From the IMG/VR virus record IMGVR_UViG_2698536369_000010: DNA of 17,208 nt. One strand, written 5' to 3'. The notes under the pieces are model-generated. The model did no database searches. It worked only from the letters and a program-made list of their open reading frames with translations, and was not told where the DNA came from. A program made the position numbers and the translations under genes. Source of the DNA: a virus. Lineage: Duplodnaviria; Heunggongvirae; Uroviricota; Caudoviricetes. Positions 11,030 to 15,313 of this stretch are shown here, piece after piece (positions within the stretch are counted from its first letter, which is position 1; each line of letters opens with the position of its first letter).

Positions 11030-12331
11030 TTAAATCCGAAGTGATGTGACTCTTCCGGTCGGTTTGACAATAGGGAATTGCTTAACGATGAAATAACCTC
11101 CGGCATCATTCGGGTGATCATTGCCAGATTTTTTATCAGGCTCCCCCTTATCATCCCAGACCTGTTGCTCCAGAGATTCGGCATATACCGGACAACGCTT
11201 CACATTAACTTTATAGCGACGCTCACCATTGGCATTGCAGAACATTGCATTCATTGAGTTAACGCGATCTTTTACTGGCGGGTTCGAGCTGTTCACCACA
11301 ACGTTAAAACCTGCCTGCTTAAGCTGGGCTATATCCGTCGTACTTGCGTTACTTGATTTTCTGGAATCTCCGGAAGCATCTGGATAAATATAAATCTCCC
11401 TCACTTTCCGGTAATCATGCCCGTCATACAGCCAGAAGCGTTCTTTAATGAGGCGGATCATATCCGGCGTATCGTAGGCATTGATGATTTCAGTTACCGC
11501 ACATGGAAGCCCCAAACGCAGCACATGGACGATTCCCGCCATCTTTCCAACGTTAAAATCCATCCCAATATAAATCGGCTCCCCTGGCTGCTCCACTTCT
11601 TCGCAATTATTCAGTTTCCGGTCAAACTGATGGTAAACAGTACCACTTGTCAGGTTAGTAAACCGTCCTAGAAGATAGGCTTTAATCAGCTCTGGAGGGT
11701 ATGATTCAAGAAGTGAAGGAATGTAATCTGCTGGCAGGTTCTTTTCATTATCGAAAGTAGATGCCTGCACCAGACCATACAGTGAGGCCAGCTCTGTTTT
11801 TTCACGCACGGCTTTAACAAACTGCTCGTAGACAAATTTGAATCCTTCCGGCGTGGTTGTAACGTCAATACCGTTGCGAAGTCCATCAATCTTATAACGC
11901 ATACGCGCAATTATCTTGCGCCACGCCGTTCTGGCTTTTTCCTTCGGCAAAATGTCCAGTTCATCCACCAGCGCATTACCAATTTTGAAACCGACGATCG
12001 TTTGTGGCTTCTCCATCGATCTGCAGATAGTGGTTCCCCGATACTGGCGTCCGTAATAAAAGTGAACCTCTTTATTTCCCTCATTAATTTTTACGTTCAA
12101 TCCCCAGTCAGCAGCAACTTCTTCCACTGTAGGGTAAAAAATATCGCGAATTTGGGGATACGTTGGCGCAAAATATCCCTGATTTATACCTGGATGCTCC
12201 CAAATCCCCTTGCATATGCCGCCACACCCAACCCATGTTTTGCCCGAGCCAAAACCAGCAATATAGGCTTTAAATTTATGGGGCATTGAAAGAAATCGCG
12301 CCTGAGGCACATTAAGCGTCGGAGAGATCAT
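11030..12331 (-). CDS. Terminase large subunit (about 433 aa from ATG at 12331)
   Basis: Walker A motif GFGSGKT near the N-terminus and acidic nuclease-type motifs (IGMDFN, IYPDASGDS) in the C-terminal half. AAGGAG SD 8 nt upstream of the preferred ATG; the track start is an upstream GTG. Confidence 0.9.
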   Translation of the reverse strand: MISPTLNVPQARFLSMPHKFKAYIAGFGSGKTWVGCGGICKGIWEHPGINQGYFAPTYPQIRDIFYPTVEEVAADWGLNVKINEGNKEVHFYYGRQYRGTTICRSMEKPQTIVGFKIGNALVDELDILPKEKARTAWRKIIARMRYKIDGLRNGIDVTTTPEGFKFVYEQFVKAVREKTELASLYGLVQASTFDNEKNLPADYIPSLLESYPPELIKAYLLGRFTNLTSGTVYHQFDRKLNNCEEVEQPGEPIYIGMDFNVGKMAGIVHVLRLGLPCAVTEIINAYDTPDMIRLIKERFWLYDGHDYRKVREIYIYPDASGDSRKSSNASTTDIAQLKQAGFNVVVNSSNPPVKDRVNSMNAMFCNANGERRYKVNVKRCPVYAESLEQQVWDDKGEPDKKSGNDHPNDAGGYFIVKQFPIVKPTGRVTSLRI

Positions 12332-13406
12332 CTTCATCACTCCTTAATCTGGCATCAACCACATTAATATTGATCGCCACAGGCTGGGGATGTTCATTAT
12401 CCTCCACCGTTTCGATCTCTTTGCGCAGCTTCTGGTTCTCTATTCTGCGCCGTTCAATTTCCAGTTCCTGTAGCCGCTTATCTGCACATAATGCCCCGCC
12501 AGCAGAAAGCAAACGCAACAATTCACGCCGGGCGGCAGCCTTATCCTCCAGCAGGATCTCAACACCGTATTTTCCGAGCTTTGACCCTGCATATAATTGC
12601 CGCGCATCCCCATCAAGCAGTGTGGTATCAGCCATATAAAGCTGTCCTGTTCCCTCACCGCAGCACTTCGGGCAATCAGGATTGGGTATGGCGTTATCAA
12701 CAAAGCCGAGGCCTCCATATTCCGGCTCGGGTTTACCATCTCTGGAGGCCTGTGCCGCAGCCTTATCGAATTCTGCAATATCACGCCACTGGTAGAGATG
12801 ATTCTCGCCCCAGCAATAACGGCAGTTAACACGGCGAAATTGTGCCAACTGATTGGGGTCGGCCTGGACAATGGCCATCAACTGGCTCACCAGTAAATCC
12901 AGGTCTGCGGTATAGCGTTTCTGGTACTGATTGCGGAAGTAGCTGATAGCACGATAAACCCTGGCATTTCTAAGCATACGGCTGGCGTTGCTGTTAGCTG
13001 TCGCACCTTGCCCCTCATAACCAGCCAGTCGGTATGCCTCTGTCGGCTTTTTCCCCTGAGCAACCAACATGGCGAATTTTGCCTGCTGGTCAGAAATACC
13101 GAATTCATCGGGGCAGAACGAAATTTCTTCCGTGTCCCCCTCAATCAGGAGTGCATCGGATACAGCCTTTTTTTTCTGAGATTTTCCGTTCTGCCTTTGC
13201 GCAGTCTGCGCAGTTTTTTTTCGCGCACTTTTTTGCGCAGTTTTGCGCATTTCTTTCTGCGCATTTTTCGGAGTTTTTTTGATGTAACGACGGGCTGTTG
13301 CGTAGTTCAGTCCCCTTGCTTCACACCATGCCACCGGAGATATACCGGAGCGGGTGTATTCAGCAATATACTCCTGCTGCAACGCCCCCCAGTCCGGTCT
13401 GCTCAT
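12312..13406 (-). CDS. Terminase small subunit, atypically long (364 aa)
   Basis: Directly upstream of and overlapping the large terminase. N-terminal HTH-like segment, a Lys/Ala/Gln-rich basic linker, a core resembling small-terminase signatures (ISDQQAKFAMLVAQGKKPTEAYRLAGY...ASRMLRNARV), and an inserted Cys cluster CRYCW...CPKCC. Confidence 0.75.
   Translation of the reverse strand: MSRPDWGALQQEYIAEYTRSGISPVAWCEARGLNYATARRYIKKTPKNAQKEMRKTAQKSARKKTAQTAQRQNGKSQKKKAVSDALLIEGDTEEISFCPDEFGISDQQAKFAMLVAQGKKPTEAYRLAGYEGQGATANSNASRMLRNARVYRAISYFRNQYQKRYTADLDLLVSQLMAIVQADPNQLAQFRRVNCRYCWGENHLYQWRDIAEFDKAAAQASRDGKPEPEYGGLGFVDNAIPNPDCPKCCGEGTGQLYMADTTLLDGDARQLYAGSKLGKYGVEILLEDKAAARRELLRLLSAGGALCADKRLQELEIERRRIENQKLRKEIETVEDNEHPQPVAININVVDARLRSDEDDLSDA
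13167..13280 (-). repeat. Phased array of six GCGCA motifs separated by T/A tracts, inside the terS 5' region
   Basis: Plus-strand GCGCA at 13198, 13207, 13222, 13234, 13244 and 13258, with T runs of 4-8 nt between them. Encodes the basic linker KNAQKEMRKTAQKSARKKTAQTAQ. Confidence 0.6.
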
Positions 13407-13409
13407 CAG

Positions 13410-13661
13410 TTAGTCCTGATTTTTATCCACCCTGAGTAGTTCGCGCAGAGCAAAGGCATCCCCTTTTCTGGCAAGCTTAAACAATGCCGCTCGTAACTCG
13501 GCTTCACCTTTCGCTCTGCCCTTACGGATGGCCGCATAAAAATCTGTCATTGCTTCCCGATTTTCTTTCAGTCGGTTCAGATCAACATCCAGAACGTCAG
13601 CGATTTGTTGTGCAGTCATCCGGCACGCTGCCAGAGACTCGACTTTCGAATACGGAATCAT
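13410..13661 (-). CDS. Small hypothetical protein with HTH-like N-terminus (83 aa)
   Basis: Ends 3 nt before the terS start. GGGGGTG SD upstream of the ATG at 13659-13661. Overlaps the 3' end of the upstream gene by 65 nt in another frame. Confidence 0.4.
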   Translation of the reverse strand: MIPYSKVESLAACRMTAQQIADVLDVDLNRLKENREAMTDFYAAIRKGRAKGEAELRAALFKLARKGDAFALRELLRVDKNQD

Positions 13662-14529
13662 TTGTCACCCCCATTGATATGCAGGGTGTCTTCTTCCTGT
13701 ATTTTTCGTGAAGGATTTTTACTGCAGCGTTGTTCCAGGTGACCTGATGGTGAATGCGTTTATGGCTGGCACCCATCAGTGAGATTTTTACGCACGACGG
13801 CGAATACATGACGGAGTAAAAACTTTTAACGTAGGTTCCGGAATCCAGATACAGCTCGGTCATTCCGCCGCTGTTTTTCTGCGTCTGTTTCTGCCCTAAC
13901 TGGACAGCACCGATCGTCATAAACAATTCACCACAGCGACCGAGATTCGTGTACGTATTCACATCCTCGTTAATGCGCCCCATGAATGAGAACGGTCGAT
14001 CAACCGAACAGATAAAGCTGTTCATTGCCTTGCGTTTCACCCACGAAGCATGGCCGCCATTGTCACCAAGAAAATCCCCGCCCTGCGACATAGCGATGGA
14101 AAGCGCGGGTATTGATTCGTAATACGCCAGCATTTCAGAAAGGATCGCATCCAGTTTCCTTATCGGGAAATAGGCCTGGTCATAGTTGCGATCCACCCGA
14201 AACTGGAACTCGTGATAATCATCATCGAGCTGAATGAAGTATTTACACCCGACCAGTTTTGCCAGGTCGAAACAGGCATTACGGGCGTAAAAAATTGAGC
14301 GGCGATCACCAAAATTATCGGCTTCGTCAAAACGACTGGCAATATCGGCTTTGGAAAATACCAGCACCTGTTCACCAAATTCAGCCATGTACTGATGCCG
14401 TGTCTTATCTTCATCATCAACAACGATAAAAATTTTCCCGGTATAGCCAGCACGACGCAACGTCCGGTAAGTCAGAACTTTGTCCGGTCGCCCGTGAGTC
14501 AGAATAAAGGCGCAAAAATCATCACGCAT
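13597..14529 (-). CDS. Uncharacterized protein with a GT-A-like glycosyltransferase signature (about 310 aa from ATG at 14529)
   Basis: Hydrophobic strand FCAFILTHGRPD, then KIFIVVDDED, then about 60 aa later YFIQLDDDY: the spacing of a GT-A Rossmann-like fold with a DxD motif. Preferred ATG overlaps the ParB-like stop (ATGCGTGA) and follows GGAGGAGGAGG. No predicted membrane segments. Confidence 0.5.
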   Translation of the reverse strand: MRDDFCAFILTHGRPDKVLTYRTLRRAGYTGKIFIVVDDEDKTRHQYMAEFGEQVLVFSKADIASRFDEADNFGDRRSIFYARNACFDLAKLVGCKYFIQLDDDYHEFQFRVDRNYDQAYFPIRKLDAILSEMLAYYESIPALSIAMSQGGDFLGDNGGHASWVKRKAMNSFICSVDRPFSFMGRINEDVNTYTNLGRCGELFMTIGAVQLGQKQTQKNSGGMTELYLDSGTYVKSFYSVMYSPSCVKISLMGASHKRIHHQVTWNNAAVKILHEKYRKKTPCISMGVTNDSVFESRVSGSVPDDCTTNR

Positions 14530-15313
14530 ATTCCTCCTCCTCCCCGCCATGCATGATCTCCACCATGCGCTGCGTCATTCGGACAAATCCATTTTCAATA
14601 GCCTGCTGATAATCAATGATCACCAGCGCCGACTCCTCGAAAAGGCACTGAATTTCAGCGGGGGCATGAGCGTAATAGTCCGCAATTCTGCTGAAATTAA
14701 ACACTGTGTGACGTTCTGCCGCACACAGGAGGAATTTCTCAATATCAGGATCAAGGGACGCCGAACGTATCCGGCTGATCAGCTCCTGAGTTTTCGTATC
14801 GTCGTACAGTTCACTGATATCCGGTTTACCGCCCGACGGCTCATAAACAGGCGTATCAATTTTCGTCGTATACGGCTCCTCCTCATTTCCTGTACCGGGC
14901 AAAACATCCGTCAACAGTTCATCAATTTCTGTCGGGATGAAGCCTGTCAGGGAGACATCAAAATCAGCATTGATTAGGTCCGACAGCTCCATCCGCAACA
15001 GATCTTCATCCCAGCCAGCATTCATCGGCAGGCGATTATCTGCCAGGCGGTACGCCTTTTTCTGCTCATCCGTCAGGCCAGACAGAACAATGACCGGAAC
15101 AGAATCCATTTTGAGCATTTCAGCCGCCATAACACGACCGTGACCCGCAATAATTTCGCCCTTTTCGTCAATCAGCACCGGATTAGTCCAGCCGAATTGC
15201 TTAATACTTTCTACCAGTTGTGCCACCTGCTCAGTACTGTGCGTCCTGGCATTGTGCGCATACGGTGACAATTCTTGTAATGGGCGATAGACTATCTTTA
15301 ATTTCTCGCTCAT
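14522..15313 (-). CDS. ParB/Srx-like nuclease-domain protein (263 aa)
   Basis: N-terminus (YRPLQELSPYAHNARTHSTEQVAQLVESIKQFGWTNPVLIDEKGEIIAGHGRVMAAEMLKMDSVPVIVL) matches the ParB N-terminal pattern seen fused to phage DNA methyltransferases, including the DVSLTGF linker. The C-terminal 150 aa are acidic with no methyltransferase motifs. Position matches ynaK of Rac but identity was not verified. Confidence 0.75.
   Translation of the reverse strand: MSEKLKIVYRPLQELSPYAHNARTHSTEQVAQLVESIKQFGWTNPVLIDEKGEIIAGHGRVMAAEMLKMDSVPVIVLSGLTDEQKKAYRLADNRLPMNAGWDEDLLRMELSDLINADFDVSLTGFIPTEIDELLTDVLPGTGNEEEPYTTKIDTPVYEPSGGKPDISELYDDTKTQELISRIRSASLDPDIEKFLLCAAERHTVFNFSRIADYYAHAPAEIQCLFEESALVIIDYQQAIENGFVRMTQRMVEIMHGGEEEEYA

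Follow-up and report, generated by a model that had tools for sequence, protein, structure and literature searches.

A conserved four-cysteine module interrupts the oligomerization core of a large subfamily of proteobacterial phage small terminases

The window, a 17,208-nucleotide stretch of DNA from a Caudoviricetes virus record (IMG/VR IMGVR_UViG_2698536369_000010), covers the late region of a Rac-type prophage of E. coli, and our analysis centered on its small terminase gene (terS). On the minus strand, terS is preceded by trkG, a ParB_N (ynaK-like) gene, a TAGT-family glycosyltransferase gene, and a small open reading frame (ORF), and is followed by terL, a DUF4055 portal gene, and genes for MuF-like, DUF6651 scaffold-like, P22-type coat, tail tube, and tape measure proteins. 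Of 5,426 complete E. coli genomes, 767 carried at least 80% of the 4.5 kb around terS. The genes adjoining terS were located as follows:

14522-15313, minus strand: ParB_N/ynaK-like gene
13597-14550, minus strand: TAGT glycosyltransferase gene (Pfam TAGT, E = 6e-35)
13410-13661, minus strand: ORF of 83 amino acids (aa) between the glycosyltransferase gene and terS
12312-13406, minus strand: terS, small terminase of 364 aa from the Rac-type E. coli prophage (identified from the ORF and its translation, Pfam, phrog_51, and RefSeq)
11030-12340, minus strand: terL, large terminase (Pfam Terminase_6N, E = 3.5e-32; Terminase_6C, E = 7.8e-11)

Directly upstream of the packaging genes, the gene for the TET-associated glycosyltransferase overlaps the ParB_N/ynaK-like gene. 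The window shows no TET/JBP gene, and the glycosyltransferase may provide a DNA-modification function for the prophage. The stop codon of the 83-aa ORF, which gave no Pfam match, lies just upstream of the terS start.

The product of terS (364 aa, 40.9 kDa; translated from 12312-13406 on the minus strand) is a small terminase (TerS), in agreement with the original prediction. It matched Pfam Terminase_2 with 36.1 bits (cut-off, 26.1; E = 1.2e-8), phrog_51 covered its full length (E = 6.4e-75), and the RefSeq name of a gene with 99.9% DNA identity is "terminase small subunit"; NCBIfam offered no model for the protein. The gene is co-oriented with and directly upstream of terL, and the ends of the two genes overlap (12312-13406 versus 11030-12340). 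The match to Terminase_2 was stretched, with 195 residues spread over 111 profile positions. Phage TerS protomers typically have a mass of 15-21 kDa (PMC9611059), and at 40.9 kDa our TerS falls outside this range, which is typical of such proteins but does not define them; the expectation that the protein is about twice the usual size was thus borne out. Its inserted cysteine cluster, which had been mentioned together with the doubled size, accounts for only part of the increase. Three additions make up the doubling, namely a helix-turn-helix (HTH) domain at the N-terminus together with a linker (~100 aa), a four-cysteine (Cys4) module, and a C-terminal helix with an acidic tail; the median length in the Cys4 subfamily described below is 259 aa. 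Database entries in which TerS is fused to tail-fiber domains (616 aa) or to a TAGT domain (565 aa) were also seen, and these fusions are probably read-through or assembly artifacts.

The domain architecture was delineated from an AlphaFold2 (AF2) monomer model, built with a 132-sequence alignment as input, and from profile alignment with the small terminase G1P of phage SF6 (PDB 3zqp). All segments lie on the minus strand:

13272-13406, minus strand: aa 1-45, extra N-terminal three-helix HTH-like domain (AF2 helices 6-20, 24-31, and 35-41; pLDDT 86-95)
13113-13271, minus strand: aa 46-98, Lys/Gln-rich linker (AF2 helix 47-73; pLDDT below 50 at 69-90)
12918-13112, minus strand: aa 99-163, canonical Terminase_2 HTH DNA-binding domain (AF2 HTH 99-146)
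12846-12917, minus strand: aa 164-187, first long helix of the oligomerization core (148-181 in the model; aligned up to SF6 G1P residue 82)
12549-12845, minus strand: aa 188-286, inserted beta-rich Cys4 module (gap in the SF6 G1P profile alignment; AF2)
12807-12824, minus strand: knuckle 1, C195-R-Y-C198-W-G200 (C195 and C198 invariant; R196 and G200 each in 130/132 sequences)
12651-12674, minus strand: knuckle 2, C245-P-K-C248-C-G250-E-G252, a CxxCxGxG motif (C245, C248, G250, and G252 invariant; P246 in 126/132; C249 variable)
12399-12542, minus strand: aa 289-336, second core helix running into a long C-terminal helix (AF2; its start aligned with SF6 G1P 98-134)
12315-12398, minus strand: aa 337-364, acidic C-terminal tail (pLDDT ~50; ending in RSDEDDLSDA)

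The mean pLDDT of the model was 85 over the whole protein and 93-98 over residues 100-300. The Cys module itself reached 93-98 in the full-length model and 95 when modeled as an isolated domain, and the full-length pTM of 0.51 left the relative placement of the domains uncertain. Within the module, a strand (188-193) is followed by knuckle 1, a helix (210-222), a Gly-rich loop, knuckle 2, and three strands (253-258, 272-278, and 281-286), with the strand before knuckle 1 and the strand after knuckle 2 both modeled confidently. A scan of the N-terminal 103 aa against Pfam gave no match; the N-terminal domain (MSRPDWG...ARRYIKK) showed a weak IS66 TnpA-like match (E = 2e-4), and phrog_370 and phrog_32222 matched the N-terminus. 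This extra domain occurs in only part of the subfamily, being absent from the TerS proteins of phages F116, Bcep22, and SopranoGao, and it recurs in phages of Yersinia, Klebsiella, and Pasteurella, in proteins that are TerS or hypothetical. Because it adds an HTH-like fold to the canonical one, each protomer is predicted to carry two HTH domains. At the other end of the protein, phrog_29114 covered aa 258-364. The C-terminal moiety of TerS proteins is flexible (PMC9611059), and by analogy the acidic tail is a candidate TerL-binding tail.

The position of the module within the fold differed from what had been anticipated. The original prediction placed the cysteine cluster between the recognizable small-terminase core and the C-terminal helical region, but both the Pfam and the G1P alignments located it inside the Terminase_2 domain. 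Profile positions 6-88 aligned with SF6 G1P residues 1-82 (HTH and first core helix) and positions 185-221 with residues 98-134 (second core helix), so that ~97 profile positions stand where G1P has ~15 residues; judging from the alignment, these ~15 replaced residues would be the beta-hairpin of G1P. Helices 148-181 and 289-336 of our model match the two core helices of SF6 and form the helical hairpin of the oligomerization core, which is interrupted by the module of ~95 aa.

All five cysteines of the predicted cluster (C195, C198, C245, C248, and C249) were found as described, spanning exactly 12660-12824 of the window within the sequences VNCRYCWGENH and CPKCCGEG; C198 and C245 are separated by 46 residues. 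Their conservation was assessed in an alignment of the query and 131 relatives, which represent clusters at ≤50% identity and share 26-52% identity with it. Only six columns were invariant across these 132 sequences (C195, C198, C245, C248, G250, and G252), and a further set of residues was conserved in at least 90% (R196, G200, Q206, E212, G231, G232, G234, P241, P246, and D260). Aromatic residues were also conserved beside knuckle 1 (W/Y/H at 199, Y205, and W207). Among close homologs (76-100% identity), the four cysteines were kept in 120 of 120, with one sequence missing 15 aa of the loop that separates the pairs and another carrying a C249G change. Alignment of homologs, proposed as a check of the prediction, therefore established conservation of the cysteines in all 132 diverged and all 120 close sequences, but for four of the five: C249 is a cysteine in 13 of 132 sequences (17 of 143 in another alignment), and the site is a Cys4 rather than a Cys5 arrangement. 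The module was also the best-conserved part of TerS, with 38-63% identity to the query over residues 180-292 compared with 26-52% over the whole protein, in agreement with column-by-column conservation. A chance or lineage-specific insertion was ruled out by this invariance across the subfamily.

The original prediction regarded a metal-binding insertion in a small terminase as unusual, a view that the distribution of the module contradicted. A HMMER search with TerS residues 100-300, run against one representative per 50%-identity cluster of ~15 billion proteins, returned 1,648 relatives at E ≤1e-3, of which 1,195 had E ≤1e-10; the 150 listed matches mostly spanned the query region 100-300. 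On sequence grounds, the Cys4 motif marks a subfamily within the Terminase_2 small terminases that comprises at least 1,195 clusters at 50% identity, so that the module is common in sequence space; members include the TerS proteins of F116, Bcep22, and SopranoGao and those of prophages across Alpha-, Beta-, and Gammaproteobacteria. Terminase_2 was matched by 130 of 132 members (best E = 1e-40), with ~205 residues per ~138 profile positions. When a DNA-level pattern for the module only (W-G-x4-Y-Q-W...C-P-x-C-x-G-x-G) was scanned over 185,579 genomes, one per species, all 111 matches fell in ORFs that matched the whole TerS profile, and no stand-alone module or other context was seen among them. 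The hosts of these matches were Enterobacterales, Acinetobacter, Psychrobacter, Dyella, Burkholderiales, and several Alphaproteobacteria. The module was kept in proteins with and without the N-terminal extension. It was kept, too, beside different large terminases: Terminase_6N was matched by TerL of the window and of Yersinia and Klebsiella phages carrying the module, and the annotated TerL proteins of F116 and SopranoGao (~540 aa; L001 3281-4912 and L003 3501-5120) matched no Pfam terminase model at E ≤0.01. Retention across TerL types, with or without the extension, points to a role intrinsic to TerS rather than to partner- or site-specific recognition.

The likeness to zinc ribbons that had been suggested was upheld for the two CxxC knuckles but not at the level of family or fold. 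The query module alone gave no Pfam match at E ≤10, its relatives reached Zn_ribbon_8, Zn_ribbon_IS1595, and zf-ChsH2 only at E values of 0.07-5, far below the cut-offs, and structure searches with the module model found no resembling solved structure, zinc ribbons included. Another comparison was offered by the cysteine-rich domain of DnaJ/Hsp40 (PF00684); CxxCxGxG is best known from the DnaJ zinc centers: knuckle 2 of TerS is an invariant CxxCxGxG, and knuckle 1 reads CxxCxG, with a Gly at the eighth position in 46 of 132 sequences. In zinc center I of DnaJ, two distant motifs close a long excursion, and the TerS motifs would do likewise, with the strands that precede the first and follow the second motif placed beside them in the AF2 model. 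However, the DnaJ domain has four such motifs and the TerS module two, and DnaJ_CXXCXGXG scored 10-14 bits (best, 13.9; E within 0.07-5) in some relatives against a cut-off of 32.7, so that the resemblance is one of motif and not of membership. A safe description of the module is a Cys4 two-knuckle site, putatively metal-binding, in a domain without a solved counterpart. An HNH (beta-beta-alpha-metal) nuclease was also considered and ruled out, as the module showed no catalytic residues (only 92 of the 132 sequences have H203), no Pfam HNH match, and no match in fold.

Comparison with characterized systems placed our TerS closest to the SF6/SPP1 G1P proteins (Terminase_2; PDB 3zqp, 3zqq, and 2cmp). 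These proteins of ~145 aa have no cysteine motif and a ~15-residue beta-hairpin where the subfamily has ~95 residues with the Cys4 site; they also lack the extra N-terminal HTH and Lys-rich linker, and they possess a beta-barrel stalk in contrast to the long C-terminal helix predicted here. The second-best solved relative by profile was the TerS of Pam5 (PDB 21di; E = 4e-14 over the HTH and first core helix), a 134-aa protein without the inserted module, in which the profile jumps from position 88 to 198. A single-sequence search of the PDB returned only a marginal match to the Pam5 TerS HTH and chance matches to glutamine synthetase. The TerS proteins of F116 (Pseudomonas), Bcep22 (Burkholderia), and SopranoGao (Klebsiella) belong to the same Cys4 subfamily, with 31-34% identity and with C195, C198, C245, C248, G250, and G252 all aligning; they are 260-272 aa long, without the extra N-terminal HTH and linker, and a PDB profile search found no solved structure for them. 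Our search of the open-access literature turned up no account of zinc or a Cys4 site in a small terminase from a phage, and the 2022 review of TerS mentions zinc only for herpesvirus subunits (PMC9611059). Those subunits, pUL28 and pUL56, carry zinc fingers and serve as accessory or DNA-recognition subunits, but they are large, all-helical, and without structural or evolutionary relationship to phage TerS (PMC9611059). Literature matches to halovirus "CxxC" proteins concerned separate small proteins and not TerS. In the literature covered, the Cys4 subfamily is previously undescribed; the annotation of the protein as TerS is itself routine.

The invariance of the C-x2-C...C-x2-C set is a strong argument for a metal site. 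When paired CxxC knuckles with Gly/Pro flanks are invariant in a cytoplasmic protein, they are most often the mark of a structural Zn(Cys)4 site, and here the four cysteines most likely coordinate a single structural metal ion, Zn2+ being the most probable. We propose, with slightly better than even confidence, that the TerS ring bears an enlarged cap domain kept in place by a structural Zn(Cys)4 staple, the domain's role being architectural and pac specificity being left to the HTH. The metal would clamp both ends of a ~50-residue excursion and adjoin two strands of the module; this clamp would lock a beta-rich domain of ~95 residues inserted in the oligomerization core of an SF6/SPP1-type (Terminase_2) TerS. 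The insertion would replace the short beta-hairpin of SF6 G1P, which caps one end of the ring channel in SF6 and P22, and from the sequence-level homology to SF6 G1P we infer a cap location for the module. Its copies would then form an enlarged cap or crown on the assembled ring, presumably a nonamer, and this cap would fix the assembly and geometry of the ring. A basic patch (R191, R192, R196, R262, R269, K276, and K279) could provide sequence-independent contact with DNA, and sequence-specific recognition of pac would fall to the HTH domains.

An architectural cap, as opposed to a determinant of pac specificity or a dock for TerL, is favored because the module is more conserved than the HTH domain, spans TerL types, occurs both with and without the N-terminal extension, and is slightly acidic. 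In the main rival, the Cys4 module is a zinc-stabilized second DNA-binding element that contacts pac DNA directly or lines or gates the ring channel and thereby aids DNA recognition, which the original prediction had suggested as a possible role beside oligomerization; we consider this rival possible, if unlikely. The basic residues beside the knuckles and in the following hairpin are well conserved (R191 and R192 in 83%, R196 in 98%, and R262, R269, K276, and K279 in 69-83%), and all seven would fit direct DNA binding equally well. Zinc modules, moreover, commonly bind nucleic acids. The HTH of pac-type TerS proteins binds DNA only weakly by itself, and the mechanism of recognition is unresolved (PMC9611059). 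On the other hand, the mean net charge of the module was -1.9, and -3.2 between the knuckles, compared with +3.3 for the HTH domain, and the module is the most conserved segment across phages that need different pac sites, the opposite of what is expected of a specificity determinant. A generic contact of the module with the DNA backbone only is possible.

High conservation of a surface-exposed insert could also reflect a conserved partner, and the module might accordingly dock a partner such as TerL, the portal, or a host factor rather than serve as an architectural or DNA-binding element. The association of TerS with TerL differs widely between phages, and in characterized TerS proteins the contact with TerL lies in the C-terminal moiety (PMC9611059). 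In our protein this moiety is separate from the module (aa 289-364), and the module co-occurs with at least two unrelated-looking types of TerL, which makes a docking role very unlikely. Least probable of all, and in our judgment barely credible, is that the cysteines hold iron, as rubredoxin-like Fe(Cys)4 or Fe-S, or form a redox dithiol through which packaging initiation senses the redox or metal state: two-CxxC Cys4 sites can indeed hold Fe as well as Zn, as in rubredoxins, and the conserved aromatics by knuckle 1 would suit such a site, but no Pfam rubredoxin or Fe-S match was found, the spacing is unlike the classical 4Fe-4S motif, CxxCxGxG is a signature familiar from zinc centers, and the gene neighborhood holds no hint of redox chemistry.

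A second feature of terS lies at the DNA level, just past the stretch that encodes the extra N-terminal HTH:

13196-13268, no strand assigned: five exact copies of the hexamer TGCGCA plus a single CGCGCA, with T-runs on their flanks, within the linker-coding DNA (codons ~47-70)

The array holds 5 of the 11 TGCGCA copies in the whole window (Poisson P ~1e-10 for five copies in 66 bp). Several reading frames run through the hexamer (T-A-Q, L/V/M-R-T/K, and C-A), which argues for a signal in the DNA itself. The same array recurred at this point of the gene in Klebsiella and E. coli phages with TerS proteins of only 34-39% identity, and a Yersinia phage had TGCGAA repeats at this position. In 50 of 75 diverged prophage terS genes that have the N-terminal extension, a hexamer was repeated at least four times in the region; in 41 of these it was TGCGCA or its one-base shift, with up to 10 copies, and another subgroup carried GTACGC-type repeats. 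No array was found at the compared position in terS genes without the extension, and those of F116, Bcep22, and SopranoGao had no TGCGCA array. The array is a strong candidate pac or TerS-loading site that may be read by the extra HTH, and together the two offer a concrete DNA-protein pair for studying pac recognition.

Recognition of DNA by TerS and its handover are still unresolved (PMC9611059), and the solved phage TerS proteins are all small (15-21 kDa) and metal-free. A very large proteobacterial subfamily has instead a 95-residue, probably zinc-stapled domain at the predicted position of the channel cap, for which there is no solved counterpart, and one solved ring from the Cys4 subfamily would test whether the cap has a function beyond oligomerization. 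A bolder version of our proposal, which we hold to be rather improbable, is that the module is a new fold and forms a metal-dependent crown, which either handles DNA as a second element independent of the HTH or switches packaging initiation in response to metal or redox state. If this were true, the TerS framework, made up of HTH, helical core, stalk, and tail, would gain a further working part in the subfamily to which the generalized transducing phage F116 belongs.
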